This document shows positions 7,343 to 38,806 of a stretch of 61,486 nt of DNA, one piece after another. How positions within the stretch are numbered: position 1 is the first letter of the stretch; each line of letters opens with the position of its first letter. A program made the translations under genes and the position numbers. Origin of the DNA: Lentimicrobiaceae bacterium (GTDB taxonomy: Bacteria > Bacteroidota > Bacteroidia > Bacteroidales > WCHB1-69); the NCBI GenBank assembly GCA_009787485.1, contig WQWP01000001.1, positions 1 to 61,486 of the forward strand, in the 5' to 3' direction. The notes beneath the pieces were generated by a model. It was not told the DNA's origin. It did not search any database and worked only from the letters and a program-made list of their open reading frames with translations.

Positions 7343-9373
7343 ATGAAAAACTTCCTCCTCTTCCTCCTCCTCCCATCAATCGCCCTCGCGCAAGTTGATT
7401 CCACATTCACCCGTATCCATCTCGAAGACCACCTCATCGAAGAAATAGAGACTCTTGATATCGAAGAGGAAACCGACCTCATAGAAGAACTATACGAAAT
7501 ATATGATGCACTCGAAACAATCAACCTCAACGATCTGCCTCCCGAAATCGCCTTTTCTATTCTAAAAATGTCTGATTATCAATATTACCAACTTCAAAAA
7601 TATATCGCCGAAAACGGATTTTTAATCTCTATTTACGAACTGATTGCGGTAGAAGGATTTACTATAGAATATGTGCAACAACTTGAACCTTATGTTGTAA
7701 CCGACGCCGTTAAAGAGCAGAAGCGAAGTTTCAAATCATTATTTAAACGTCCCAAACACAAATTGTTAATCCGTTATTCGCAGATCTTGGAAACGAAAGC
7801 GGGATACAACAAAGACAGAAGCACACACTATGTAGGCACCCCGCAACAGTACGTCTTTCGCTATACTTTCACGGCGAGCGAGCATATTACATTAGGAATT
7901 GCAGGTAAAAAAAATGCCGGCGAAGAGTTCTTCAAAGGCTCTCAAAAGCATGGATTTGGATTTTATTCTTGTCATTTACAGATAAAAAACATCGGCATTT
8001 TACAATCAGTAATTATAGGCGATTACCGGTTGCATTTCGGACAAGGCATGATAATGGGAAACGGATTTTTAAGCAACACTTCCGGTGAGATCAGAAAAAC
8101 AGGCGCCGTGCAGCGTCCGGTAACCGCCATGAGTCAGAGTAATTTTTTACGAGGTATAACCTTGCAATTAGGAACTTACAAATTTAGTGGCACAATTTTC
8201 TACGGTCATCGTTTTTTTGATGGCAATGTTGTAGAAATAGAGCCCGGTAATTTTGCTTTTGAAGGAGCCATTTCCAACACGGGGCTACATCGCACCGAAA
8301 CAGAGCTAAGCAAGCGCAATACGTTGTTTAACAGAGTGTATGGAGTACATTTTCGCACACAGTTCAAAGCTTTTAAAATCGGAACACAAATCATGCGTAC
8401 CGAATTTTCATTGCCAATAGTATCGCCTTCAAGACCTTATCAATATTTTGATTTTTCAGGAAAAGGGTTATGTAATGCAAGCATAGATTATCAGGTATTA
8501 GCAAAACATCATATCATTTTCGGGGAAGTGGCGGCAAGCAGTACATCCGGTTTCGGGTTTCTGCAAGGCGCTATTTTTAAAATAGATCCACGGGTAAGAC
8601 TCTCCGCATTAATACGCCATTTTAGCAAAAACTTTATCGCCATTGATGGGAAGCCTTATTCAAAAAACAGCAAGCTGAATAATGAAACCGGCTTATTGCT
8701 TACTTCCGAAATTGTACTTTCAAAAAGAGTAAATATGGTGATGTTTTTCGATATGTATCAATTTCATTGGCTGCGATATTTGACAGACAAGCCTTTACCA
8801 CATCTCAATGCTTCGCTGCGGTTTGACATCGCGATGAGTAGAAATTGCGCATTATTAGTGCGTTACACCTACAAAACACAAGCCAAAAACTTCAGAGAAG
8901 AACAAATCTACAATCAAGTCTTAGAAACACAGCAACATCGTTTACGGGTAATTCTTTCCTGTAATTTTCTGCAATTTCTGCAATTAAAATCGGAAATAAG
9001 CGGCGTTTACAATAGAAATATTCATCATAAAAAACACATCTTCGGATTACTTGCCTATCAAGATGTTGGCGTTAATATGAATAGAATAGGATTGGATTTA
9101 AAACTCAGACTTGCTTTGTTTGATACCGATACTTACGATGAACGATTGTATGCTTATGAAAACGACCTCTCTTATACATTTACTATAAACAGCTATTATT
9201 ACAGAGGTTGCAAAACTTACTTCATCGTAAAATGGAAATACGGGTGGTTTGAAATACAAGGCAAAATATCGCGCACATTATTTTTTAATAGAAATCAAAT
9301 CAGCAGCGGGTTGGAGTTGATTGATGCGCCGCATAGAACGGAAGTGAAATTGCAAATGCTGATTAAACTATAA
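7343..9373 (+). CDS. Secreted helix-hairpin-helix domain protein with a large C-terminal beta-barrel-like region
   Basis: Signal peptide MKNFLLFLLLPSIALAQ, an acidic stretch, an HhH-like segment (LNDLPPEIAFSILKMSDYQYYQLQKYIAENGFLISIYELIAVEGFT), then about 550 aa rich in alternating aromatic residues. Confidence 0.6.
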   Translation: MKNFLLFLLLPSIALAQVDSTFTRIHLEDHLIEEIETLDIEEETDLIEELYEIYDALETINLNDLPPEIAFSILKMSDYQYYQLQKYIAENGFLISIYELIAVEGFTIEYVQQLEPYVVTDAVKEQKRSFKSLFKRPKHKLLIRYSQILETKAGYNKDRSTHYVGTPQQYVFRYTFTASEHITLGIAGKKNAGEEFFKGSQKHGFGFYSCHLQIKNIGILQSVIIGDYRLHFGQGMIMGNGFLSNTSGEIRKTGAVQRPVTAMSQSNFLRGITLQLGTYKFSGTIFYGHRFFDGNVVEIEPGNFAFEGAISNTGLHRTETELSKRNTLFNRVYGVHFRTQFKAFKIGTQIMRTEFSLPIVSPSRPYQYFDFSGKGLCNASIDYQVLAKHHIIFGEVAASSTSGFGFLQGAIFKIDPRVRLSALIRHFSKNFIAIDGKPYSKNSKLNNETGLLLTSEIVLSKRVNMVMFFDMYQFHWLRYLTDKPLPHLNASLRFDIAMSRNCALLVRYTYKTQAKNFREEQIYNQVLETQQHRLRVILSCNFLQFLQLKSEISGVYNRNIHHKKHIFGLLAYQDVGVNMNRIGLDLKLRLALFDTDTYDERLYAYENDLSYTFTINSYYYRGCKTYFIVKWKYGWFEIQGKISRTLFFNRNQISSGLELIDAPHRTEVKLQMLIKL

Positions 9374-18930: not shown

Positions 18931-21657
18931 TTAGAATAGCGTCAGCTGTTCCCATTCTTCGTCGTCCTTGTTCTTTTTAATGGGCTTTTCCTGTTCTTCA
19001 ATTACCTCTTGTATTTTTTCGATTACTTCGATTTTTTCGACTACCTCTATTTCTTCGATTACTTCCTCTATTTCTTCGATTACTTCTTCTATTTCTTCAA
19101 CTTCTTCATCTTGAATTACTTCTTCCTCCGGCTCCGGCAACGATTCTACGGGCGTAATAGCCACGATATTTTTAAAACTAATCCGTTTTCCACGCGCCTT
19201 AATGCTCATTATCTCTACAAAATCGGCGCAAGAAATAGTTGCTTTCTCAACTTCATCCGGTTTTTTCTCGTAATATTCTACTTCAATTTGCGGGAAATGG
19301 TCGTAGCTGATGAAAATGGGGCAGATCGTTTTATCATCTCCCAGAAATTCAACCTTTTTATCTGTAACTTCCGGAAAGAAGCGCTTCATGTAAAACTTGC
19401 CGTCCTCCTTGTTTTCGTAAACTGCAGTAATCGGTTTTTGGGCGTTATGTTTTTGAATGATAGAAAGATTATCTTCAAAGTGGGTGGAAAGGTCAAAACC
19501 GGTAACTCGGTAATTTCCGGTTTGGTAAATGGAGATAATTTTATCGTCTTCTTTAAATGCGCCTAATAAATCGCCGCGCTCATCGCTGTTTAAACGCATG
19601 ACAATAGGGTCATAAAAAATGTTAATGGCGCTTAAGGTAGATACGCCTTTGGAGATGATTTCGATTTTCCGCACCGGATTTCGCGATAAGATATTGCCTT
19701 GCGAAGCACGACCTTTTATGGCTAATGTGCTAAAGTCGAAGTCGAATTGTAGTTTTTTAAGTTTGGCTTTGGCTTTGAGAAATACGCGTACTTTTTCGGC
19801 TTCCCCGTTAGGATTTGAAGTAAAGTAAACCACTTTCGTTCCGAGAGTTCCTTTAGTTAAATCATATTCCCTATCTCTGGTAACGCCGCCCACCGAAAAT
19901 CTTTTCACCATGGCAAAACCGTTGTAGCCATCGGCATATACCATATTGTAAACCGTTCTGTCGTCGTTTCTTTTAAACACTTCTACATGAATGATGTCTT
20001 TTCCAAAGAACTGTTTTTCTGATACTTTGCTCACCATAAAAGTTCCGGTATCGCGAAAAACCACCACCTCATCAATGTCGGAGCAGTCGCACACGTATTC
20101 TACGTCTTCATCTTTTTTGAGCGCAGTTCCTACAAATCCTTCTTTTCTATTTACATACAACTTTTGATTTGCTACTGCCACCGTTGCCGCCACGATATTA
20201 TCAAAGTTTTTAATTTCGGTTTTGCGCTCTCTGCCTTCGCCATATTTTTTCTTTAGATTTTCGAAATAAGCAATCGCATATTCAATTAAATGATTCAAAT
20301 GATGAAGCACCTGATCCATTTTCTCTTCAATTTGTGCAATTTTTTCGTCCGCTTGTTTGATGTCGAATTTAGAAATTTTACGAACAGGTTTTTCACATAA
20401 TTTCAGCACGTCTTCTCGTGTAATTTCCCTTCTAAACATATCACGATACGGATCGAACGCTTTTTCGATGTTGTCAATTTGCTTTTCCCACGTAGCCGTA
20501 TCTTTTTCGAGTTCTTTATAAATTCTTTTTTCAAAGAAGATTTTTTCTAACGACCATTTGTGCCAATCTTCCTCTAATTCAGCCAATTCAATTTCAAGCT
20601 CACGTTTCAACAGCGCAACCGTATTTTCCGTATTAATACGCAAAATCTCTTTTACCGACAAAAACTGCGGTTTTCTATCATAAATTACGCAGGCATTGGG
20701 CGAGTACGACATCTCGCAATCTGTAAAAGCATACAGTGCATCAATGGTTTGGTCGGGCGAAACGCCGGGTTGAAGGTGTAGCAATATTTCTACCTTTTCT
20801 GCCGTATTGTCATCAATCTTCTTAATCTTCAATTTCCCTTTTTCAATGGCGGGCGCTATAGAATTGGTAATGAGGTTTGTAGTAGTTGTCCCATAAGGTA
20901 TTTCGTGGATGACCAATATTTTTTTATCCACGATAGTAATTTTCGCTCTGTTTCTCACTTTTCCGCCTCTCACGCCATCGTTATATTTTGAAATATCCAC
21001 TGTGCCGCCGGTAGGAAAATCGGGGTAAATTTCAAAATCTCTGTTTTCCAAAATGGCGATAGAAGCGTCAATCAGTTCTATAAAATTGTGTGGTAAGATT
21101 TTGGTAGCCAAGCCCACAGCAATTCCTTCCACGCCTTGCGCCAGCAGCAACGGAAATTTTACCGGCAGGGCAATAGGCTCTTTGTTGCGGCCGTCGTACG
21201 ACTGTTTCCATTGAGTGGTTTTAGAATTAAAAACTACTTCCAATGCAAATTTCGTCAACCTTGCTTCGATATATCTCGGCGCTGCCGCGTCATCTCCGGT
21301 GAAGATATTTCCCCAATTTCCCTGTGTATCAATGGTAATCTCTTTTTGCCCCAGTTGCACCATGGCATCGCCAATGGAAGTATCGCCATGCGGGTGGTAC
21401 TTCATGGTATTTCCGATAATATTCGCCGCCTTGTTGTAACGTCCGTCTTCTAACTCATACATAGAGTGAAGGATACGGCGTTGCACCGGTTTCAGCCCAT
21501 CGTAAATATCCGGCACTGCGCGGTCTAAAATTACATAAGAGGCATAATCCAAAAAATAGTTCTCAAACATGGATTGCACAAAGATGACTTTGTGGAGGTC
21601 GGAGGTTGGGGGGATGTCGTTGGTTAGCTGTTGGTCTTCGTTGATTTCTTCCGGCAT
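18931..21657 (-). CDS. parC: DNA topoisomerase IV subunit A (type IIA topoisomerase A subunit) with an acidic repeat tail
   Basis: YASYVILDRAVPDIYDGLKPVQRRILHSM, HPHGD, and the active-site context AAPRYIEARL. The Bacteroidota ParC-like N-terminus (FLDYASYVI) is distinct from the GyrA pattern. Confidence 0.9.
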   Translation of the reverse strand: MPEEINEDQQLTNDIPPTSDLHKVIFVQSMFENYFLDYASYVILDRAVPDIYDGLKPVQRRILHSMYELEDGRYNKAANIIGNTMKYHPHGDTSIGDAMVQLGQKEITIDTQGNWGNIFTGDDAAAPRYIEARLTKFALEVVFNSKTTQWKQSYDGRNKEPIALPVKFPLLLAQGVEGIAVGLATKILPHNFIELIDASIAILENRDFEIYPDFPTGGTVDISKYNDGVRGGKVRNRAKITIVDKKILVIHEIPYGTTTTNLITNSIAPAIEKGKLKIKKIDDNTAEKVEILLHLQPGVSPDQTIDALYAFTDCEMSYSPNACVIYDRKPQFLSVKEILRINTENTVALLKRELEIELAELEEDWHKWSLEKIFFEKRIYKELEKDTATWEKQIDNIEKAFDPYRDMFRREITREDVLKLCEKPVRKISKFDIKQADEKIAQIEEKMDQVLHHLNHLIEYAIAYFENLKKKYGEGRERKTEIKNFDNIVAATVAVANQKLYVNRKEGFVGTALKKDEDVEYVCDCSDIDEVVVFRDTGTFMVSKVSEKQFFGKDIIHVEVFKRNDDRTVYNMVYADGYNGFAMVKRFSVGGVTRDREYDLTKGTLGTKVVYFTSNPNGEAEKVRVFLKAKAKLKKLQFDFDFSTLAIKGRASQGNILSRNPVRKIEIISKGVSTLSAINIFYDPIVMRLNSDERGDLLGAFKEDDKIISIYQTGNYRVTGFDLSTHFEDNLSIIQKHNAQKPITAVYENKEDGKFYMKRFFPEVTDKKVEFLGDDKTICPIFISYDHFPQIEVEYYEKKPDEVEKATISCADFVEIMSIKARGKRISFKNIVAITPVESLPEPEEEVIQDEEVEEIEEVIEEIEEVIEEIEVVEKIEVIEKIQEVIEEQEKPIKKNKDDEEWEQLTLF
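18998..19128. repeat. 21-bp tandem repeat inside the 3' end of parC
   Basis: ttcgattacttcctctatttc-type units are reiterated. They encode IEEVIEE heptads (EEVEEIEEVIEEIEEVIEEIEVVEKIEVIEKIQEVIEE). Confidence 0.8.
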
Positions 21658-22453: not shown

Positions 22454-25357
22454 ATGAAAAAAACATTTCTCCTCCTTTTCGTAGCCTTCTTCGCTACTTT
22501 TTCCGTGCTTCATGCACAAAAACAGTACAAATATGAAACGGTTCCCAACGATCCGTTAAATGCTCGTATCTATAAATTAGACAACGACTTAACTGTTTAT
22601 CTAACCCAATACAAAGAAGCGCCGCGCATTCAAACTTACATCGCGGTGAAAGTGGGAAGCAAAAACGACCCCGCCGAAACCACCGGATTGGCGCACTATT
22701 TTGAACACATGATGTTTAAAGGCTCGCCAGATTTTGGCACCATAGATTGGGAAAGAGAGCAAGTGATGATCGCCCAAATTGAAGAATTATTCGAACAATA
22801 CCGGCTTTTGTCGGATGAAGCCGAGCGAGCCGCACTCTACAGAATTATTGACAGTATTTCGTTTGAAGCCAGCAAATTGACAATTCCCAATGAGTACGAT
22901 AAACTGATGAAATTTATTGGCTCGCAAGGTACCAATGCGGGAACGGCAAATGATTATACCGTTTATATGGAAAATATTCCTGCCAATCAATTGGAAAATT
23001 GGGCAATCATTCAGGCAAACCGCTTCGATCATCCGGTGTTGCGCCTGTTTCATACGGAGTTAGAGACAGTTTATGAAGAAAAAAACATGTCGCTTACTAA
23101 CGATAACCGCAAAGGGAGTGAAGCTATTCTTGCCGGATTGTTTCCCAATCATCCTTACGGACAGCAAACTACGCTGGGAGAAGCCGAACACTTGAAAAAT
23201 CCTTCCATGAAAAATATTCGTGAGTTTTACGAAAAATACTATGTGACTAATAATATGGCAATTGCCATGTCGGGAGATTTTGAGTTTGATGATGCTATCG
23301 CTATCATTGACAGGCATTTCAGCAAGTTAAGACGAGGCAACGTGCCGGAATTGATTTATACCGGAGAAACGCCTATTACCGAGCCTGTAGTGAAAGAAGT
23401 GGTGGGTTTGGAAGCTGAATTTCTCAATATGGCGTTTCGCGTGGATTTACCTGCAAACGATCCTAATATCTATACTTTGAATATGTTAGTTCGCATATTG
23501 TATAATGGAAAATCGGGATTGATTGATTTGAATTTGAATCAGAAACAATTGGTAATGAGCGCCGGAGCGTTCCCCTACGTGTTAACCGATAACTCCGCAT
23601 TATTTTTAACCGGAAAACCAAAAGAAGGGCAAACATTAGAAGAAGTTCGCGATTTATTATTGAAACAAATTGATTTATTGAAAAAAGGAGAATTTGATGA
23701 TGATTTATTAACCGCCGTAATTAACAATATGCGTTTAACTGAAATGCGCCAGTTGGAAAGCAATGCCTCGCGCGCAAGAATGTTTACAAGCGCCTTTTGG
23801 AATAATATTCCCTGGGAAGTTGCCTCTCAATCCATCGCCAATTATTCCAAAATCACAAAAAAAGATATTGTTAATTTTGCCAATAAGCACTTCCACAATA
23901 ACTATGTAATTGTGTTTAAGCGACAAGGCACGCCTGAGGAAGTAACTAAGGTGAACAAGCCTGCCATTACGCCCATTCATATTAATAGAGATGAAGAGTC
24001 AAACTTTATGAAGAAAATAAAAGAGGCTAAAACAGAACCCTTAGTAGCTGTTTTTATTGATTTTCAAAAAGATATGACAATCATTCCCAATAAAAACTTC
24101 AACATTTATTATATTAAAAATGTAGAAAATGCTACATTTAATTTGCAGTTTCGTTATAAAACAGGCGAGTTGAATGATTTACGTTTGCCTTTTGCCACCG
24201 ACTATATTGATTATTTAGGAACTTCAACGATGAGCGCCGACAAAATTCAGGAGGAGTTTTATAAATTGGCATGTACCATGAATTTGTCGTGCAGCGACGA
24301 ATATACAACGCTCACTATTACCGGTTTAAGCGACAATTTTGCGAAAGCGCTACAACTTACCTCATCGGTGATGAAAGATGCGCAACCTAATGCCGAAGCG
24401 TTGCAAAATCTGATTTCCGATGCGTTAAAAGCGAGGAGAGATGCGAAAAGCAATCAAAATGCCGTGCAAAACGCACTTCGCAGCTATGGCGAGTTTGGGC
24501 CTGACTTGGCGCAATATATCCTTTCCGAAGAGCAACTTCAAAAGCTTACGCCCAACGAATTAATTAGCATCATAAAAGATTTATTGAACATAAAACCGGA
24601 AGTTTATTTTTATGGCAACCTCTCTACTGATGAATTTAATAAACTTTTATTGAAAAATTACCAAATACCGAAAAAATTCACCGAACCGGCGCCAGCTCAA
24701 GTATTTAACCGCCTTCCAGTAACAGAAGATAAAGTTTATTTTGTACATTATGATGCCAAACAAGCCAGATTGTTTACTTATTCCGACGGTACACCATTTA
24801 ATGTGCAATATTTACCCAATATTAATATGTATAACCAATATTTTGGGGGAAGTATGAATGCCATTGTATTTCAGGAAATGCGCGAAAAACGCGGCTTGGC
24901 TTATACTGCGCGTTCGGCTTATATTTCTGCCAATGAGCTAAATAAGATAAATTACAATTTCTCTTTCATTGCCACTCAAAACGACAAAGTAACGGATGCT
25001 TTTGAGGCTTTTAATGAGCTGTTTAATGATATGCCGCAATCGGAAGCTGCTTTTACATTGGCAAAAGAGGGCGCTTTACAAGCTATTGAAACCAATAGAA
25101 TTCAGAAAACCGCTATTTTCAACGCGTGGCGCAACGCACAAAGAATGGGCATTGACTACGACATTAACAAAGTGCTATATGAATCCTACAAAACCTTTAC
25201 ATTGGATGATGTCGTAAAGTTTAATCATAACCATGTGAAAGACAGAAAGAAAGTATATATGATTGCCGCCAAAGAAGGAGATATGAATTTTGAAGAGCTG
25301 CAGAAAAAATTTGGTCCGGTACAAAAATTAACATTAGAAAATATCTTTGGATATTAA
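22454..25357 (+). CDS. M16 (pitrilysin/insulinase) family zinc metallopeptidase, secreted
   Basis: Signal peptide, and an inverted zinc motif HYFEHMMFKG (HxxEH). The 967-aa length fits a two-module M16 protein. Confidence 0.88.
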   Translation: MKKTFLLLFVAFFATFSVLHAQKQYKYETVPNDPLNARIYKLDNDLTVYLTQYKEAPRIQTYIAVKVGSKNDPAETTGLAHYFEHMMFKGSPDFGTIDWEREQVMIAQIEELFEQYRLLSDEAERAALYRIIDSISFEASKLTIPNEYDKLMKFIGSQGTNAGTANDYTVYMENIPANQLENWAIIQANRFDHPVLRLFHTELETVYEEKNMSLTNDNRKGSEAILAGLFPNHPYGQQTTLGEAEHLKNPSMKNIREFYEKYYVTNNMAIAMSGDFEFDDAIAIIDRHFSKLRRGNVPELIYTGETPITEPVVKEVVGLEAEFLNMAFRVDLPANDPNIYTLNMLVRILYNGKSGLIDLNLNQKQLVMSAGAFPYVLTDNSALFLTGKPKEGQTLEEVRDLLLKQIDLLKKGEFDDDLLTAVINNMRLTEMRQLESNASRARMFTSAFWNNIPWEVASQSIANYSKITKKDIVNFANKHFHNNYVIVFKRQGTPEEVTKVNKPAITPIHINRDEESNFMKKIKEAKTEPLVAVFIDFQKDMTIIPNKNFNIYYIKNVENATFNLQFRYKTGELNDLRLPFATDYIDYLGTSTMSADKIQEEFYKLACTMNLSCSDEYTTLTITGLSDNFAKALQLTSSVMKDAQPNAEALQNLISDALKARRDAKSNQNAVQNALRSYGEFGPDLAQYILSEEQLQKLTPNELISIIKDLLNIKPEVYFYGNLSTDEFNKLLLKNYQIPKKFTEPAPAQVFNRLPVTEDKVYFVHYDAKQARLFTYSDGTPFNVQYLPNINMYNQYFGGSMNAIVFQEMREKRGLAYTARSAYISANELNKINYNFSFIATQNDKVTDAFEAFNELFNDMPQSEAAFTLAKEGALQAIETNRIQKTAIFNAWRNAQRMGIDYDINKVLYESYKTFTLDDVVKFNHNHVKDRKKVYMIAAKEGDMNFEELQKKFGPVQKLTLENIFGY

Positions 25358-26643
25358 TGACTTATCCTGAAATTATAGCGCATATTTTCCAATCCTTCCC
25401 TATGTACCACCGCATTGGAAGTGCGGCATACAAAGAAGGGTTGGAAAATATTGAGCAGCTTGCCGAAATGGCAGGTCATCCCGAAAAGAAAATCAAAACC
25501 ATTCACATTGCCGGAACCAACGGAAAAGGCTCTGTAGCGCACTTATTGGCTTCCTATTTTCAAGAGTTGGGCTGGAAAACGGGCTTGTTTACCTCACCGC
25601 ATCTGATTGATTTTCGCGAACGCATAAAAATCAACGGCAAAGAGATTTCCGAAAAACAAGTAGTAGATTTTTTTGACAAATATCAAGAAAAAATGGCAAA
25701 AATTACGCCTTCTTTTTTCGAAATGACGACAATTTTAGCCTTCGATACATTTGCCAGCGAAAAAACCGATATTGCCATTATTGAAACCGGTTTAGGCGGA
25801 AGATTAGATGCCACCAACATCCTCTCCCCTATCCTATCGGTAATTACCAATATCTCGTTGGAACACACCCAAATGCTGGGCAATACGCTGCCTGAAATTG
25901 CTGTTGAAAAAGCCGGCATTATTAAAAAAAACACTCCCGTAGTGATTGGCGAATATCATCCTGAAACATTTCCGATTTTTGAAGAAATCGCAAAAAACAA
26001 AAACGCCCCACTTTTTTTAGCGGAAGAATATATTGGGGATTTGCAACTTAGCGGCACTTACCAACGAAAAAATATCGGAACGTTTTTAAAATGCGTGCAA
26101 GTTCTTAAAGAAGAAGGAAGAAAGAAGAAGGAAGAAATATCCCCTTCAAATTTTGAAGGGGTGCCCGAAGGGCGGGGTAGTTTATATAAAAACATAATTC
26201 ACACCGCCATCCAAAACCTTTTCAAAAACACCGGTTTTGCAGGCCGCTGGCAAATCATCTCCCAAACCCCGCTTACCATTTGCGACGTGGCGCACAACCC
26301 CGCCGGAATAGCCTTAGTGATGGCGCAATTGCAGGAGTTTCCACACCGCAACTTACACATTATCATGGGTTTTGTTAATGATAAAGATATTGATGAAATT
26401 GTACCTCTGTTGCCCAAAAATGCAACCTATTACGCCTGTCAGGCTCAAATAGAGCGTGCTATGCCTGCGGAAAAACTGTTTCAAAAATTATCTTTGGCTA
26501 ACCTTAATGTTCTTAAAATCTCTAATGTCTTTAATGCCTATAATGAAGCTAAACAAAATGCCGATAAAAACGACCTCATTTTCATCGGCGGAAGTTTTTT
26601 TGTGGTGGGGGAATTTTTGAAAAAAAATGACACAAGTGGGTAA
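25357..26643 (+). CDS. folC: Folylpolyglutamate synthase / dihydrofolate synthase, carrying an in-frame repeat insertion
   Basis: P-loop HIAGTNGKGS, Mur-ligase-like motifs (TSPHL, GLGGRLDATN, DVAHNP). The start overlaps the upstream stop (TAATG). Confidence 0.9.
   Translation: MTYPEIIAHIFQSFPMYHRIGSAAYKEGLENIEQLAEMAGHPEKKIKTIHIAGTNGKGSVAHLLASYFQELGWKTGLFTSPHLIDFRERIKINGKEISEKQVVDFFDKYQEKMAKITPSFFEMTTILAFDTFASEKTDIAIIETGLGGRLDATNILSPILSVITNISLEHTQMLGNTLPEIAVEKAGIIKKNTPVVIGEYHPETFPIFEEIAKNKNAPLFLAEEYIGDLQLSGTYQRKNIGTFLKCVQVLKEEGRKKKEEISPSNFEGVPEGRGSLYKNIIHTAIQNLFKNTGFAGRWQIISQTPLTICDVAHNPAGIALVMAQLQEFPHRNLHIIMGFVNDKDIDEIVPLLPKNATYYACQAQIERAMPAEKLFQKLSLANLNVLKISNVFNAYNEAKQNADKNDLIFIGGSFFVVGEFLKKNDTSG
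26108..26190 (+). repeat. GA-rich tract plus double-hairpin element (copy A), inside the folC reading frame
   Basis: aagaagaaggaagaaagaagaaggaagaaa followed by tatccccttcaaattttgaaggggtgcccgaagggcggggtagtttatataaa. It translates in frame as EEGRKKKEEISPSNFEGVPEGRGSLYKN. Confidence 0.9.
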
Positions 26644-26797: not shown

Positions 26798-27421
26798 ATG
26801 AGAAGTAAAAATCAATTACCCCCGGCAACATTTGAAAGTGTATGGGCGCTCTTACAAGAATCCATCAAAGATACTCAAGAAATAAAAAAAGAGAATCGAG
26901 AGATGAAAAAAGAAATGAAAAGAGAGTCGAAAGAATTTAGCAAAAGAATAGACGAAATGATTGCCGAGAGTCGTCGAGAAAGAAAAGAATTGAACCGGCA
27001 ACTTGGCGGCATTTCAAATAGCAACGGCGAAATGGCGGAAGCCTATTTTTACAACGCTTTTAAGGTAAATAAACGTTTTGCCAATGAACAATATGATCAT
27101 GTTCAACGACCAACAAAAATAACAAATGGTGATATTGAAGCAGAATTTGATATTGTATTATCCAATGGAAAAAGCGTTGCTATTATTGAAGTAAAATACA
27201 ATGCTAAACCGGATAATATTTCTGTCAGAAGGCTGATTGATAAAGTAGAAAAATTTAAAATATTGTATCCGAATTACAAAAATCATAGCATTTATTTGGG
27301 TGTTGCTGCCATGACGTTTAGAGGCGGATTGGAAGAAAGGTTACATCGCAACGGCATCGCCACTATTCATCAAGTAGGAAAGAAAATGGTGGTGTACGAC
27401 AAGGGAGTGAAGGCGTTTTAA
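26798..27421 (+). CDS. Hypothetical protein: N-terminal coiled coil plus C-terminal PD-(D/E)xK-like nuclease fold
   Basis: K/E-rich helix (aa 20-65), then a ...EAEFDIVLSNGKSVAIIEVKYN... D-x(n)-E-x-K pattern. It resembles the DUF3782-type architecture as I remember it. Confidence 0.5.
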   Translation: MRSKNQLPPATFESVWALLQESIKDTQEIKKENREMKKEMKRESKEFSKRIDEMIAESRRERKELNRQLGGISNSNGEMAEAYFYNAFKVNKRFANEQYDHVQRPTKITNGDIEAEFDIVLSNGKSVAIIEVKYNAKPDNISVRRLIDKVEKFKILYPNYKNHSIYLGVAAMTFRGGLEERLHRNGIATIHQVGKKMVVYDKGVKAF

Positions 27422-28826: not shown

Positions 28827-31800
28827 TCAAGAGATCCTCTCCTGCACCCCCTTAAACACCACAAAAAACACCGGCACAAACAACAACCCCAAAACCGTCG
28901 AAATCAAAAACCCGCCGGCAGCAGCGATGCCAATGGAGATATTTCCGGCAGCGCCGGCGCCGCTTGCCAAACACAACGGCAACATGCCAAAGATAAACGC
29001 AAAGGAGGTCATTAAGATGGGGCGGATACGTTCTTTTGCCGCTAAAACAGCCGCTTCCGGCAAACTCATGCCCTGCTTTCGCTTCAGCAAGCCGAACTCG
29101 ACAATTAAGATGGCGTTTTTGGCTAACAAGCCCAGCAACATGATCATGGCTACCTGAACGTAGATGTTGGCAGGCAAGCCCACGAGGTTTATGGTTACAT
29201 ACACGCCGAAAATGCCGAGCAACAGCGCCAACATCACAGATATAGGAACAATGTAGCTTTCGTATAATGCTGCAAGAATGAAAAATACCAAAATAAAACT
29301 CAAAGCAAAAACAAAAAGTTGCTGTCCGCCCGATTCAATTTCATCGCGGGTCATTCCCGAATATTCATATTTAAAACCTACCGGCAATTCCTGCGCCACA
29401 ATCGCCGCCGCATCCATCGCCTGGCTCGTGCTGTAGCCATCTGCCGGCGAAACGTTGATGGTCATACAAGGAAACATGTTGTAACGTTTAATCAGGTCGG
29501 AGCCAAATACGGGCTTTAAGGAGACTAATGAGTTGAGCGGCACCATTTCCCCTTGCTTGTTTCTCACATACATAATGTTCAAATCCATTACGCTTTGGCG
29601 CGAAACTGCATCGGCTTGCACCATAACGCGGTAAAACCGAGTGAACTTATTAAAGTCGCCGGCTACCCCGCCGCCAAAGTAAAACTGCATGGTATTGAAC
29701 ACATCCGCAGGCGAAACACCCATCATTTTGGCTTTATTCACATCCAATTCCAGCTCATATTGCGGCACATTTACCGTGAAGCTGCAAAATGTTTTGGAAA
29801 TCTCCGGACGTTCATTCATTTTACTCATAAACTCCTGTCCCACATTATACATATTGATAATATCGCCCGATCCGGTTTGATCCAAGAACTGCATTTCAAT
29901 ATCGGAAGAACTGCCGTAGCCGCTAATGGTAGGCGGCACAAAAAAGAGCACGGTGGCATCTTTGGTTACGTTAATTGCCGTTAGCACATACATCTGCATT
30001 ACAATGTCTCTTAGAGAGATAGCTTCTCTTTGCGACCAATTTACCAATCTCACAAATCCCAATCCATACGAGCCGCCTACCGCACCCGACAACATTCCAA
30101 CACCGCCTACGGTAACCACCAACTCTACTTCCGGTATCGTTTGCAAAAGCGTATCTAACTGTGCCAACACATTTTCCGTCCTATCCAAAGAAGTTCCTTC
30201 CGGCATGGTAATATCGAAAAATATTACGCCCTGGTCTTCTGTAGGGACGAAAGCGGTTGGGGTTGTTTTTAACAAAAAGAAGGAAAAGCCTGCAATGATA
30301 AGGAAAGCGATGAACACAAGCGTTTTGCGATTCATAAATTTTTGCAACAACCTCCCATATTTTTGCACCATCGCATTAAACCCAACATTAAACCCATCCC
30401 CCATCCTCTTCAACAAATTCCTTTTCTCCTTTTCTCCCTTCTCCTTTTCTCCATGTTTTACCTTTATCATAATCGCGCACAACGCCGGACTCAACGTCAG
30501 CGCATTAATCGCCGAAATAGACACAGCAACGGCTAACGTTACGCAAAACTGTTGGTAAAATGCGCCGGTCGCGCCGGTCATCATCACTGCCGGAAGGAAG
30601 GTGGCGATAAACACTAAGGTAATGGAAATCACTGCTCCGGTAATTTCGCCCATAGCAGATTTTGTCGCCTCTAAGGGCGAAATATTTGGGTCGGCTTCGA
30701 GTTTGGCATATACGGCTTCGACGACGACGATGGCGTCATCCACCACAATTCCAATAGAAAGCACTAAGGCGAACAGCGTAAGCATGTTAATGCTAAATCC
30801 GAAGATTTGCAAAAACATAAATGTGCCTACTAACGCCACCATTACCGAAATGGCAGGAATAATAGTAGCCCGTATGTTTTGCAGGAAAATAAACACCACC
30901 AGAAACACCAAAATAAACGCCTCAACCAATGTTTTTTTTACTTCGTGAATAGAAGCGTCTAAGAAATCCTGGCTATCTACTACTAAATCGTAGTGTACAC
31001 CGGCAGGCAGATTGGCTTCGAGGTCTTTCAAAACAGCTTTAATTGCGGTGGAAATATATTGAGAATTAGATCCTTTCATTTGATACACCGCCATAACTAC
31101 GGAAGGCTCGCCGTTAGTTCGCCCAATAATGTCATAGTTAAATGCGCCGAACTCGATCGTTGCCACATCTTTCAAATATAAAATCTCTCCGGTGTTGCTT
31201 ACGCGAAGTACAATGTTTTCGTATTGAGACACTTCTGTTAAACGTCCTTTATATTTAATGGTAATTTGAAACGCTTCTCTGCTGTTTGCGCCAATTCTTC
31301 CGGGGGCAACCTCCAAACTTTGTTCTTTAATGGCTTGCACCACATCGGTGGGCTGCAGGTTATATACTGCTAATTTTTCCGGATGCAGCCACACCCGCAT
31401 GGCGTAGTCGCGGGCGCCGAACACTGCCACATCTCCCACGCCGGCAATACGTTGCAGCTCCGGAAGGATGTAAATACGGGCATAATTTTGAATAAACGTT
31501 TCATCATACGCAGGATTGCTGCTTGCCAGCGACAACACCAGCACCATGCTGTTTTGTTTTTTGGAAGTTCTTACCCCCATCTGGTTTACCACTGCCGGCA
31601 AGCTGCTGATGGCAGACGATACGCGGTTTTGCACATTTACCGCCGCCATATCGGGGTCGGTATCCAAGGTAAAAAACACTTGGATGGTAGCGCTGCCGTC
31701 GTTGTTGGCAGAAGAAACCATGTAGGTCATGCCCTCCACGCCGTTTATTTTTTCTTCCAACGGGGCAACTACGGAGTTGAGCACCACATCGGCGTTGGCG

Positions 31801-31961: not shown

Positions 31962-32013
31962 AATTAGGAATTAGGAATTAAGAATTAAGAATTAGGAATT
32001 AGGGATTAGGAAA
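31962..32013. repeat. Heptamer tandem array (AATTAGG / AATTAAG, about 7 units)
   Basis: aattaggaattaggaattaagaattaagaattaggaattagggattagg, located between the beta-barrel gene stop and the RND ATG. Confidence 0.9.
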
Positions 32014-32649: not shown

Positions 32650-32704
32650 ATATAAACTACCCCGTCTCGCTTCGCGAGACACCCCTTCAAAATTTGAAGG
32701 GGAT
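32650..32704 (-). repeat. Double-hairpin element, copy B (reverse orientation)
   Basis: catataaactaccccgtctcgcttcgcgagacaccccttcaaaatttgaaggggat. Its reverse complement matches copies A and C. Confidence 0.9.
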
Positions 32705-34830: not shown

Positions 34831-34835
34831 ACTTA

Positions 34836-35018
34836 AGGGAGAAAGGAGAAAGGAGAAGGGAGAAACGAGAAGGAAGAAAAGAGAAGGGAGAAGGGAGAAG
34901 GGAGAAACGAGAAGGAAGAAAAGAGAAGGGAGAAGGGAGAAGGGAGAAACGAGAAGGAAGAAAAGAGAAGGGAGAAGGAAGACGGAAGAAAAGAGAAGGG
35001 AGAAGGAAGACGGAAGAA
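34836..35018. repeat. Purine-rich (GA) tandem array, 42-bp period, about 3.5 units plus shorter sub-repeats
   Basis: gggagaaacgag recurs at 34858, 34900 and 34942. The plus strand is almost entirely G/A. It begins just after the pfkB-family stop and runs directly into hairpin copy C. Confidence 0.9.
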
Positions 35019-35077
35019 TATCCCCTTCAAATTTTGAAGGGGTGTCTCGCAAAGCGAGACGGGGTAGTTTATATAAA
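35019..35077 (+). repeat. Double-hairpin element, copy C
   Basis: atatccccttcaaattttgaaggggtgtctcgcaaagcgagacggggtagtttatataaa. It abuts the stop codon (35080..35082) of the DUF559 gene. Confidence 0.9.
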
Positions 35078-35079
35078 TA

Positions 35080-35499
35080 TCACTTCCCAAACCTCCCCAC
35101 TATAAACCCCTCCAAATCCAACAACACACTCCCCATAAAAAACCGCACACTCTCATCAGCCACCCTGTAAACAACCAACCCCAACGATTCCAAATACGCA
35201 CTCCGTTTCTCATCATATTCTTCCTGATATTTATGAATACCCCCATCAATTTCAATGACCAGCCCTAAACTCTCTACATAAAAATCAACAATATAATTCC
35301 CAATAACTCTTTGTCTATCAAAATCAATTCCATAGAACTTCTTTTTATTGACGTGCATCCAAAACATAACTTCTGAAAAAGTGGAGTTGCTCCTTAATTT
35401 TCGCGCTCGGTATTTTAGAGATTCGTTATATGGTAAGGAGTGGATGTAGCGGGTAGGGATTTGGAGGTCTTTGATTTTGATGTGTTTGGTGGTTTTCAT
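35080..35499 (-). CDS. DUF559 (Vsr-like, restriction-endonuclease-fold) endonuclease domain protein
   Basis: 139 aa with ARKLRSNSTFSEVMFW...FDRQRVIGNYIVDFYVESLGLVIEIDGGIH.., the typical DUF559 core pattern. Confidence 0.8.
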   Translation of the reverse strand: MKTTKHIKIKDLQIPTRYIHSLPYNESLKYRARKLRSNSTFSEVMFWMHVNKKKFYGIDFDRQRVIGNYIVDFYVESLGLVIEIDGGIHKYQEEYDEKRSAYLESLGLVVYRVADESVRFFMGSVLLDLEGFIVGRFGK

Positions 35500-35546
35500 G
35501 AGTTGATTTTTTTAAAAATTCTACTTTCTTTTTAGTTTTTAATTTT

Positions 35547-35596
35547 CATATAAACTACCCCGCCCTGCGGGCACCCCTTCAAAATTTGAAGGGGAT
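35547..35596 (-). repeat. Double-hairpin element, copy D (reverse orientation)
   Basis: catataaactaccccgccctgcgggcaccccttcaaaatttgaaggggat, 48 nt upstream of the DUF559 ATG. Confidence 0.9.
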
Positions 35597-35604
35597 GTTT
35601 GGGT

Positions 35605-35628
35605 TGTCCTATACCGAGATATAGGACA
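35605..35628. repeat. Perfect 9-bp-stem hairpin next to copy D
   Basis: tgtcctata-ccgaga-tataggaca. Confidence 0.7.
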
Positions 35629-37294: not shown

Positions 37295-38806
37295 ATGTTT
37301 TTCAAAAAAATATCGTTATATTCATTATTTATGAATTTTAACCTAATGAATACCCAACCTCACCATCCAAAATTCTCAATTCTCAATTCTCAATTCTCAA
37401 TTCTCATTCTCCTTTTCTCCCTTCTCCTTGCTCCTTTTACCTCTGTTTACGCCCAAAAAAAACAAAAAAAAGAAAAATCCACTAAACAAACCGAGCTTGT
37501 AATCAACGAGCGCAAGCAATCTATTGTTTTTGCCGATGGGCTTCGCGAGTTTTATTCGCAAAATTATTCTGCAGCAAAAAAATCGTTTCAGGAAGTATTG
37601 AAACAAAATCCTAAAAATCATGCGGCTCATTATCTGCTGCATAAAATAGCGGTGGAGCAACAAGATTACCTGTTGGCTTCCCATTATTTAAAGGAAGCGA
37701 TAAAATTGGATAAAAAAAATGAATGGTATCAGATTGATTTAGCGGGAGTTCACGAAAAATTGGGCGATTATGTAAGCGCTGCAAAAATTTGGGAAGAAAT
37801 ATGTAAAGTGAAATATAATAATGAATATTATTTAATATCGTTGGCAAACAGCTATTTACATTTAGGAAGATTGCACGATGTCATCAAAGTATATGATCGA
37901 ATAGAGAATCTCTTGGGAAAAAATGACGGTCTCACCGAAACCAAAAAAAATATATGGCTCTATTTAAACGATGTAAAAAACGCCGTGCGGGAATATGAAA
38001 AATTGATGGCGCTTTATCCTCATGAAATTGGATATTACATTATTGCCGGCGAAATTTACTTGTCGAACAACATGCCGGACAAAGCGTTTCCTTTCTTTCA
38101 GCAAGCCATGCAGATAGATGCAGAAGATCCTGATTTGAACTTGGCATTGGCAAACTATTACGAGCGCGTTAAAAAACCGGAGGAAAGTTTTGAGGCATTA
38201 TTAAAGGCTATTTCGAGCAAGGAGTTAGAGATTGAAGAAAAAATTCCTACACTGAAAACCTATTTAGCCAACGCTTTTCGTTTGCAAGTTCCCGACATAT
38301 TGGAAAAAACTGAAAAATTAGCCCAAGCGGTTACCATAGCGCATCCTTTCGATTTGGAAGGTTGGGCATCTTTAGCCAAACTCAGCTCGCTAAAAAAACA
38401 ATATCAGGAAGCTAAGTTGCTCTACGAAAAATGTATAGCGTTAGATGAAGCACAATTTTCCATTTGGGAAGATTATTTTTATGTGTTGGCAAAATTGGAA
38501 GATTATCAAACCATTATCGCCAATGAGAAATTAGTAGAAGAATATTTTCCTACCAATGCCACCATTCAATACAGTTTGGCGCTGGCTTTATACAAAGAAA
38601 AACAGTTCGAGAGCGCTTTAAAGGCTGCCAAACGCGCATTAGCATTCACTTTTGAAAATAGTTTCGTAGCAGATTTGAATCTATTACTTGGCGACATCGC
38701 GATTGAATTGGAGCAAAAAGAGGAAGCGGTAAAATATTGGAAAACAGCGCAACGCCGCGGGATTAACACCCCTGAGCTGCAAAACAAAATAGAAACCAAT
38801 CAATAA
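37295..38806 (+). CDS. Secreted TPR-repeat protein
   Basis: The ATG lies 2 nt after the rSAM stop. There is a hydrophobic N-terminus ending VYAQ and multiple 34-aa TPR-like units (A..Y..A...F..AL..NP...A.Y.L). Confidence 0.8.
   Translation: MFFKKISLYSLFMNFNLMNTQPHHPKFSILNSQFSILILLFSLLLAPFTSVYAQKKQKKEKSTKQTELVINERKQSIVFADGLREFYSQNYSAAKKSFQEVLKQNPKNHAAHYLLHKIAVEQQDYLLASHYLKEAIKLDKKNEWYQIDLAGVHEKLGDYVSAAKIWEEICKVKYNNEYYLISLANSYLHLGRLHDVIKVYDRIENLLGKNDGLTETKKNIWLYLNDVKNAVREYEKLMALYPHEIGYYIIAGEIYLSNNMPDKAFPFFQQAMQIDAEDPDLNLALANYYERVKKPEESFEALLKAISSKELEIEEKIPTLKTYLANAFRLQVPDILEKTEKLAQAVTIAHPFDLEGWASLAKLSSLKKQYQEAKLLYEKCIALDEAQFSIWEDYFYVLAKLEDYQTIIANEKLVEEYFPTNATIQYSLALALYKEKQFESALKAAKRALAFTFENSFVADLNLLLGDIAIELEQKEEAVKYWKTAQRRGINTPELQNKIETNQ
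37370..37437. repeat. Heptamer array (attctca, about 5 units) fused to a CT-rich tract, inside the 5' end of the TPR CDS
   Basis: aattctcaattctcaattctcaattctcattctccttttctcccttctccttgctcctttt. It encodes KFSILNSQFSILILLFSLLLAPF. Confidence 0.85.

Follow-up and report, generated by a model that had tools for sequence, protein, structure and literature searches.

An in-frame hairpin repeat in folC of a Lentimicrobiaceae genome and a DUF559 nuclease gene bracketed by its copies

How does a repeat built of hairpins come to lie within the reading frame of the essential gene folC, and what kind of element is it? The question is raised by a 61,486-nt stretch of DNA from a Lentimicrobiaceae bacterium (assembly GCA_009787485.1, contig WQWP01000001.1, positions 1 to 61,486), referred to below as the window. 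A first-pass annotation of this DNA had reported a GA-rich tract and a double hairpin at 26108-26190, in frame within the folC open reading frame (ORF) and free of stops and frameshifts, and had taken the segment to be repeat-derived and not ancestral coding sequence. The ORF and its translation agree with the first point, the coordinates are correct to within 3 nt (the element spans 26107-26187), and the second point is borne out by orthologs at ~59-61% identity that lack the insert, by the membership of the segment in a multi-copy DNA family, and by a reading frame that differs between orthologs. [quoted passage not shown]

The host gene, at 25357..26643 on the + strand, encodes a folylpolyglutamate/dihydrofolate synthase of 428 aa and has the features of the FolC/FPGS group of the Mur ligase family, namely the M and C domains, the P-loop and the fold. 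Pfam places Mur_ligase_M (PF08245) at residues 51-216 and Mur_ligase_C (PF02875) at residues 296-414, the GTNGKGS P-loop is invariant in an alignment of 53 FolC homologs, an NCBI protein named FolC from a Lentimicrobiaceae metagenome-assembled genome (MAG) matches the window protein at 100%, and the top Foldseek matches of the protein model are the FolC structures 3n2a, 1w78 and 1o5z (TM 0.71-0.77). Across the element the ORF list and translation give KEEGRKKKEEISPSNFEGVPEGRGSLYKN, without a stop or frameshift, and the residues there include EEISPSNFEGVPEGR.

On the + strand the element begins with a purine-rich 7/14-nt tandem tract at 26107..26137 (AAAGAAGAAGGAAG x2.2 by TRF, with a perfect 14-nt unit), which is read KEEGRKKKEE and forms the inner array of the module. 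Then come hairpin 1 (HP1; CCCCTTCAAATTTTGAAGGGG, 26141..26161), which folding and repeat matches identify as the invariant palindrome of the family, and hairpin 2 (HP2; 26163..26173), with CCCGAAGGGC at 26164-26173, a GNA-type loop, a variable covarying stem and, with its closing pair, the form G-CCCGAAGGG-C. Last is the tail GGGGTAGTTTATAT (26174..26187), which copy comparison shows to be the outer terminus of complete 255-nt units. Positions 26140-26187 read TCCCCTTCAAATTTTGAAGGGG-TG-CCCGAAGGGC-GGGGTAGTTTATAT and fold as two adjacent hairpins with a predicted folding energy of -20.4 kcal/mol (z = -2.5). The window holds four copies of the module, starting at 26141 (+), 35022 (+, copy B), 35574 (-, copy C) and 32682 (-, copy D). 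A 41-nt core of the folC copy is matched with 1 mismatch at 35555-35595 (-), where 0 matches are expected from 100 shuffles, and the junction GGAAGAA(A)TA|TCCCC of the folC copy is identical in intergenic copy B. The earlier remark that intergenic DNA can encode the same peptide also proved right, since in the folC-copy frame copy B translates to ISPSNFEGVSRKARRGSLYKY and copy C to TSPSNFEGVPAGRGSLYEN.

The AlphaFold2 model of the protein (mean predicted local distance difference test score, pLDDT, 80.8) has a helix at residues 234-256, a disordered stretch at 258-273 with pLDDT <50, and a second helix at 274-292; the first strand of the C-terminal domain is at residue 298. Outside this stretch the fold is preserved, and the model superposes on solved FolC/FPGS structures (TM 0.71-0.77). 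The model supports an insert that loops out, disordered, at the protein surface between the two helices that close the N-terminal domain, a surface loop as the first-pass annotation had foreseen. Its placement of the insert was half right: by the model the insert ends ~17 residues before GRWQ and so precedes that region, and it lies near the inter-domain linker, not inside it. At ~80 nt and 28 aa the insert is too small for an intein or self-splicing intron. No Rfam family reached its gathering score in the window, and a permissive scan of the 255-nt units returned only sub-threshold plant miRNA precursor models, matches that reflect hairpin shape only.

The alignment of 53 homologs includes 46 close relatives (70-83% alignment identity) and six orthologs at ~59-61%. 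Those six have 18 residues and no insert between the flanking helices, compared with 38 in the window protein. Among the 46 close relatives the site holds 16-77 residues made of several unrelated repeat types, from 0 to ~60 of them extra, and at 70-80% identity FolC proteins measure anywhere from 399 to 468 aa. Each of the eight alleles inspected as DNA starts with a purine-rich 7-8-nt tandem repeat whose unit varies by lineage (GAAGAAG, GGTATGA, GGAGAAA, GCAGAAG or GCAGAAGA), followed by nothing in L007, by the same double hairpin in L001, L003 and L004, by a TCTTACGG repeat in L006 and L008, and by a different large palindrome in L005. In L004 (1241-1420) HP2 and the tail occur three times with a 42-nt period. 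Some relatives read the hairpin element in another frame (SPSNFEGV..GSLY vs PLQILKGW..GVVY), so the homology lies in DNA, not protein. Judged from these alleles, the folC site appears to be a general landing pad for several repeat families. The palindrome of L005 (10001-11371, GCA_009787215.1) has CACAAAG/CTTTGTG arms and is read ..LCPLW..; L006 (8012-9286) carries four TCTTACGG copies read SYGLTVLRSYGL; and the relative P0002 has a hairpin read SPPRHSALDAESQGIAGQARNDG.

Copies elsewhere were sought with the exact HP1 pattern in reference genomes, metagenome contigs and viral contigs. The reference genomes gave 58 copies, nearly all in the MAGs Cu122P1bin21, Th196P4bin9 and Nc150P4bin20, and the metagenome scan raised the number of non-redundant copies to at least 174; the viral contigs gave zero matches to the HP1 pattern and hence no sign of a phage origin. 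The sample codes of the host MAGs belong to higher-termite gut studies, and the repeat family is restricted to Lentimicrobiaceae-like MAGs from higher-termite guts. Outside this clade, a Chitinophagales MAG (L009, 3036-3096) and Francisella sp. SYW-9 (L060, 5236-5290) each have one copy of complete architecture, in which HP1 and TG are followed by a different paired HP2 and CGGGGTAGTTT. The range of the family, or of relatives with other HP1 sequences, may go well beyond what this pattern detects.

The module is ordered as follows: a variable inner part consisting of a heptamer array or further hairpins, then (A)AAT, HP1, TG, HP2 and CGGGGTAGTTTATAT. The CCCC/GGGG stem is perfect in 209 of the 214 HP1-like sites in the DNA examined. 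HP2 comes in 45 distinct versions among 143 complete cores with its pairing kept, and several of its stems are unrelated to one another yet all paired, mostly closing on a C-GNA-G loop. Within the equal-length class, four of the seven HP2 pairs change on both sides, none of 500 shuffles reaches the covariation score and slid controls collapse; the loops flip to their complement while the stems stay. At the same site, other folC orthologs and two AlaRS orthologs carry different HP2 versions with HP1 and tail kept. Empty orthologous sites also exist (L133 and L025, paired with L080 and L114 respectively), and arrays come with the hairpins in a fumarase gene and at sites that are empty in relatives. 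Because the core is conserved much more strongly than the host gene, HP2 covaries and the loops flip, maintenance must act at the DNA level, and the family appears to be active or homogenised there, whether by repeated insertion, by gene conversion drawing on an active pool, or by a strong constraint on the DNA itself. Complete units of ~255 nt, with modules as terminal inverted repeats, tails outermost, a conserved hairpin-rich core and unrelated flanks, were found in L071, L088, L105 and L112, and also in L152/L097. In L012 (3433-3560) HP2 and the tail are present twice.

The folC copy is far from alone in lying within a gene. Taking as intragenic those copies whose frame stays open over 50 codons or more to each side, 51 of the 174 listed copies (29%) lie in ORFs: 44 in sense frame a, 2 in sense frame b, and 5 in antisense orientation. 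The number of host clusters is 27 in all and ~22 for the 46 sense copies. Pfam confirms hosts with domains on both sides of the copy, several of them housekeeping proteins: FtsK, EPSP synthase, an M16 peptidase, class II fumarase, AlaRS, an ABC ATPase, RmlD, a GNAT protein, an AddB-like nuclease and others. FtsK has two copies in its linker, and the GNAT host is occupied at the same site in two MAGs. In the fumarase, ~30 residues (IIEGRRKAEEKSPSNFEGVSREARRGSLYE) stand in place of 3 residues of the solved structure 7c1c, and because of this replacement the heptamer tract must be part of the inserted DNA.

The excess of frame a among these copies is strong (p = 3e-11). Stop codons were considered as its cause and rejected: frame b is no less open, and it is frame a that the common GAATAAT linker closes. 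Most simply, we infer, selection would favour a peptide that is hydrophilic and prone to disorder. Copies in essential genes would survive only if they were free of stops, had a length divisible by three, lay in the non-terminating orientation and were read as a hydrophilic Gly/Ser/Pro-rich peptide, and such a filter would account for both the frame bias and the orientation bias by selection.

What might move the modules is suggested by the other copies in the window. Copies B (35022..35074, +) and C (35548..35594, -) face each other tails inward on either side of a gene at 35080..35499 (-) for a 139-aa DUF559 protein, a Vsr-like PD-(D/E)XK endonuclease (Pfam PF04480, E = 1e-27; nearest structure PDB 3hrl, E = 1.7e-14). 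The bracket spans 35022-35594. The tail of copy B ends 5 nt from the DUF559 stop codon, in convergent orientation, and on the inner side of copy B lies an array of 26 purine-rich heptamers (AAGGGAG; TRF, 34835..35018, +). Copy C is upstream of the gene and co-oriented with it, with 48 nt from tail to ATG, and is accompanied by an extra outer hairpin, GTCCTATA..TATAGGAC (35606..35627), which recurs beside the DUF559-upstream module in L027 and L176 and beside a module in L058; a version with the variant stem GTTCTATAAC..GTTATAGAAC lies beside the DUF559-upstream module in L177.

Two inward-facing modules bracket every close DUF559 homolog examined, and, with that of the window, the brackets span six different neighbourhoods. 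The other bracketed loci are L152/L097/L175 (beside ABC transporter genes), L027/L085/L176 (beside type II cas genes), L173, L174 and L177, of which L173-L177 were selected only on how long their contigs are, from ~36 homologs at 65-81% identity. The bracketed ORFs are both conserved and intact. No bracket surrounds the paralog L028, which is 51% identical, and in the DNA examined, with its 2,686 ORFs of 60 aa or more, the strict inward-tail bracket is found only around DUF559 ORFs, so the bracket is not a by-product of modules flanking genes generally. PADLOC gave weak, sub-significant DUF559 matches only and no evidence of a known defence system, and in the literature searched we found no link between DUF559 and palindromic repeats. 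Several details of these loci deserve mention. In L176 (3001-6474) the cassette adjoins cas2-cas1-cas9 (type II), and in L085 (11781-13484, = L027) the DUF559 gene at the cas locus is 5'-truncated. The ATATAA of the tail provides the DUF559 stop codon in L175 (3001-3432) and L152 (2944-3375); in L176 (3001-3474) the stop is lost and the ORF continues into the module. Downstream of the DUF559 gene in L173 (3428-3600), HP1 is repeated with a 50-nt period.

The DUF559 nuclease might be the dedicated enzyme of the family, in analogy to a REP-associated tyrosine transposase (RAYT) that has its REPs on either side. After nicking or cutting of the hairpin-tail structure by this nuclease, modules would be copied into new or already occupied sites by host repair; such homing-like cleavage and repair could also yield the adjoining short tandem arrays by slippage. 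We put mobilisation by DUF559 at somewhat below an even chance. The full picture, of a REP-like hairpin family with a dedicated DUF559 nuclease instead of a tyrosine transposase, whose modules and slippage-made heptamer arrays would be copied by repair into sites that include essential coding sequence, where one frame would give a harmless disordered peptide, is offered tentatively and may well prove wrong.

A number of points weigh against the interpretation given so far. The search used the exact HP1 pattern, so the diversity and host range of the family are underestimated and the invariance of HP1 is partly ascertainment. The filled and empty pairs are too diverged, at ~82% flank identity, for a target-site duplication or clean boundary to be made out; the element ends are AT-rich (ATAT). 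The frame-a excess is left unexplained by stop codons, and selection on the peptide is our assumption. The compensatory changes in one other folC copy, described below, could mean that the hairpin itself is selected in that gene. To our knowledge, DUF559 proteins have no known strand-transfer activity. The tails point inward in the DUF559 bracket and outward in the 255-nt units, so that either could be the moving unit. Instead of mobilising the element, DUF559 could travel with it as a passenger or exploit it as a homing parasite, and a Y1 transposase gene (PF01797) lies at the edge of L174 (1-78), 2.6 kb from the DUF559 cassette, a possible alternative mobilising enzyme.

These last points lead to a different account of mobility, in which a conventional transposase, either a RAYT-like Y1 enzyme or one of IS630 type acting on TA-rich ends, moves the family and DUF559 travels as a passenger or homing parasite. 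REP families are known to go with Y1 transposases and usually carry the tag GTAG (PMC3733652), and the module tail contains GTAG; the 255-nt units resemble classical MITEs with terminal inverted repeats; and there is the Y1 gene of L174. However, the 770 nt beside that gene, the only Y1_Tnp gene seen, contain no module, and it is DUF559 genes that are the sole module-bracketed ORFs. No transposase was recognised beside the copies inspected, in DNA that was not systematically screened for transposases. We consider this account less likely than not.

The modules might instead be mainly regulatory cassettes, serving as a portable promoter or leader, an mRNA stabiliser or an antisense terminator and kept by host selection, with the copies in genes as by-products. 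The copies that lie between co-directional genes divide into 35 sense and 10 antisense (p = 2.5e-4), and the median distance from tail to the next co-oriented ATG is ~25 nt. Copy D is of this kind, a solo intergenic module at 32650..32702 (-) between co-directional genes, 15 nt beyond the upstream ORF's stop and 28 nt ahead of the next ATG. The antisense strand presents HP1 followed by a T-rich run, which a consensus scan finds terminator-like for three of the four window copies. The tail TAGTTTAT resembles what we take to be the Bacteroidota -7 box, TAnnTTTG; the promoter scan covered only sigma-70-type promoters. Against a regulatory role, 29% of the listed copies lie within ORFs, a place in which neither a promoter nor a terminator would be of evident use, and empty orthologous sites exist. 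We regard host-selected cassettes as distinctly unlikely to be the main explanation; the idea is compatible with mobility, and the orientation bias would be explained by selection against polar termination. A replication-strand bias was rejected as the cause of the orientation in the window, where two copies on the + strand and two on the - strand lie within 10 kb, each co-oriented with its local genes.

Could the folC insert go back to one ancient insertion, made in the ancestor of the clade, that has decayed at its site since then without further activity? All in-group alleles, the short ones too, have some purine-rich 7-8-nt repeat, which fits one founding event. Neutral decay, though, predicts ~55-65% identity, as at third positions, and the core is 98-100% identical: the 48-nt core matches at 48/48 positions between the window and L004 and at 47/48 between the window and L001, compared with 76-83% in the flanking coding DNA and 54-67% at its third codon positions. 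The hairpin-type inserts are patchy over the neighbour-joining FolC tree, with hairpin-type alleles scattered and the nearest relative of the window (P0002, 83% alignment identity) carrying an unrelated insert, and the orthologous folC and AlaRS sites hold different HP2 variants. A lone ancient event is quite improbable on these grounds.

The same identity might be read as a sign that the insert, or its mRNA or DNA hairpin, is kept for a function in FolC or in folC expression: the core is up to 100% identical between orthologs with 76% identity in their coding flanks, and the L003 folC copy (7462-7510) shows compensatory transitions in both stems, CTCC/GGAG and CCT/AGG, a variant unique among the ~214 HP1-like sites in the DNA examined. 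The site is hypervariable, however, and the closest relative, P0002, has a completely different insert there; some in-group alleles are at baseline length, others use another frame or other repeat types. Intergenic copies and copies in unrelated genes show the same conservation, which is hence a property of the family and not of folC, and the peptide is predicted to be disordered. Such exaptation is very improbable. The first-pass annotation had spoken of a MITE/REP-like element tolerated, or exapted, as a loop; the tolerated loop holds up, and exaptation for FolC function finds no support, the segment being hypervariable and absent in some close relatives. Finally, repeats often break or mis-join metagenome assemblies and many of the ~36 DUF559 homologs are on contigs <2 kb, but the chance that the folC insert reflects a chimeric contig, a misassembly or chance similarity is negligible, given an expectation of 0 for the core match and five other assemblies from different samples (L001, L003, L004, L069 and L125) with the hairpin module at the same folC site in an intact ORF.

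The window contains other repeats. There are microsatellites at 31962-32012 ((AATTAGG)x7, between genes) and at 37371-37411 ((AATTCTC)x6, inside the N-terminus of a TPR-like ORF, 37295..38806), and arrays like these 7-8-nt ones flank elements in L011, L087, L112 and L175. TRF and a repeat search found a dense 9/21-nt tandem repeat, TTCTTCGATTAC, at 18994-19128. The RND pump encoded in the window carries a GA tract (30419-30452) read GEKEKGEKEKR, which is ruled out as a length insertion by a gap-free alignment to 7wlv. Directly downstream of folC, a 207-aa ORF (26798-27421) has no Pfam match.

Selfish palindromes read in frame have so far been regarded as mostly a Rickettsia curiosity with scattered REP cases, and they are now seen on a similar scale in gut Bacteroidota, with genic copies in folC, alaS, fumC, aroA, ftsK and rmlD. 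The mechanism is approachable here through the 44-to-2 frame bias, the reuse of sites with module swapping, and an intact multi-copy nuclease gene bracketed in every close case examined. If DUF559 were the driver, a very widespread orphan domain would gain a role and a second enzyme class would stand beside RAYT, defining a new bacterial 'REPtron' class. The elements also inflate and diversify protein lengths in MAG annotations and break assemblies, which is relevant to termite-gut comparative genomics.

Among known systems, the Rickettsia palindromic elements (RPEs) are in-frame repeats in many genes, with nearly half of their copies genic (Ogata et al. 2000 via PMC10969869). As with RPEs, we find a palindrome in frame in unrelated, often essential, genes and read as a homologous tolerated peptide, here with 29% of copies genic and 44 of 46 sense copies in one frame. 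The sequences are unrelated, however, and the hosts are gut Bacteroidota as opposed to obligate intracellular Alphaproteobacteria; the module measures ~50-80 nt, compared with ~100-150 nt for an RPE, and has a heptamer array attached. RPEs are CGTC-tagged (PMC3733652), whereas the tail GGGGTAGTTTATAT has GTAG and no CGTC, and CGTC/RPE repeats lack a dedicated gene (PMC3733652), whereas DUF559 is bracketed here.

The likeness to the REP/REPIN-RAYT systems (PMC3733652) and to the mosaics of bacterial interspersed mosaic elements (BIMEs) lies in the short GC-rich hairpins, subfamilies with compensated stems, and singlets together with inverted doublets. Like REPs with their RAYT genes, the modules occur between co-directional or convergent genes with occasional intragenic copies, and one small gene is flanked by inverted copies of its own repeat; inverted doublets as a unit, by which REPs and REPINs are recognised, are present in the 255-nt units. 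Unlike in those systems, the flanked gene encodes a DUF559 Vsr-like PD-(D/E)XK nuclease and not a Y1 (HUH) transposase, and the genic fraction is far higher. A GTAG adjoins the stem here: in nearly all copies it comes after GGG past HP2, on the 3' side in the strand that carries it; the usual notation for canonical REPs is 5'-GTAG-stem. The REP survey reported no GTAG REPs from Bacteroidetes (PMC3733652).

Bacterial MITEs such as ERIC, Correia, BOX and Nezha also share features with the family: a non-coding unit of ~255 nt, terminal inverted repeats of ~50 nt, many copies and some in-frame host fusions. Unlike MITEs, most copies here are single terminal modules and not whole units. No parent insertion sequence with a transposase and module ends was found in ~1.15 Mb around the copies, where DUF559 is the sole gene with module ends, in inverted geometry. 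Vsr and DUF559 share a PD-(D/E)XK clade (PMC3424549), which is also that of Vsr-like (EDxHD) homing endonucleases such as I-Bth0305I, selfish elements that spread by cleavage and host repair. Endonucleases of the I-Bth0305I type reside in group I introns or inteins of phage genes, whereas the gene found here is free-standing within hairpin repeats. By sequence, tag and flanked gene, the element belongs to neither the RPE nor the REP/RAYT family while behaving like both, and it is set apart by its host phylum, its 29% genic fraction, its single frame, the reuse of sites with module swapping, its heptamer arrays and its DUF559 bracket.

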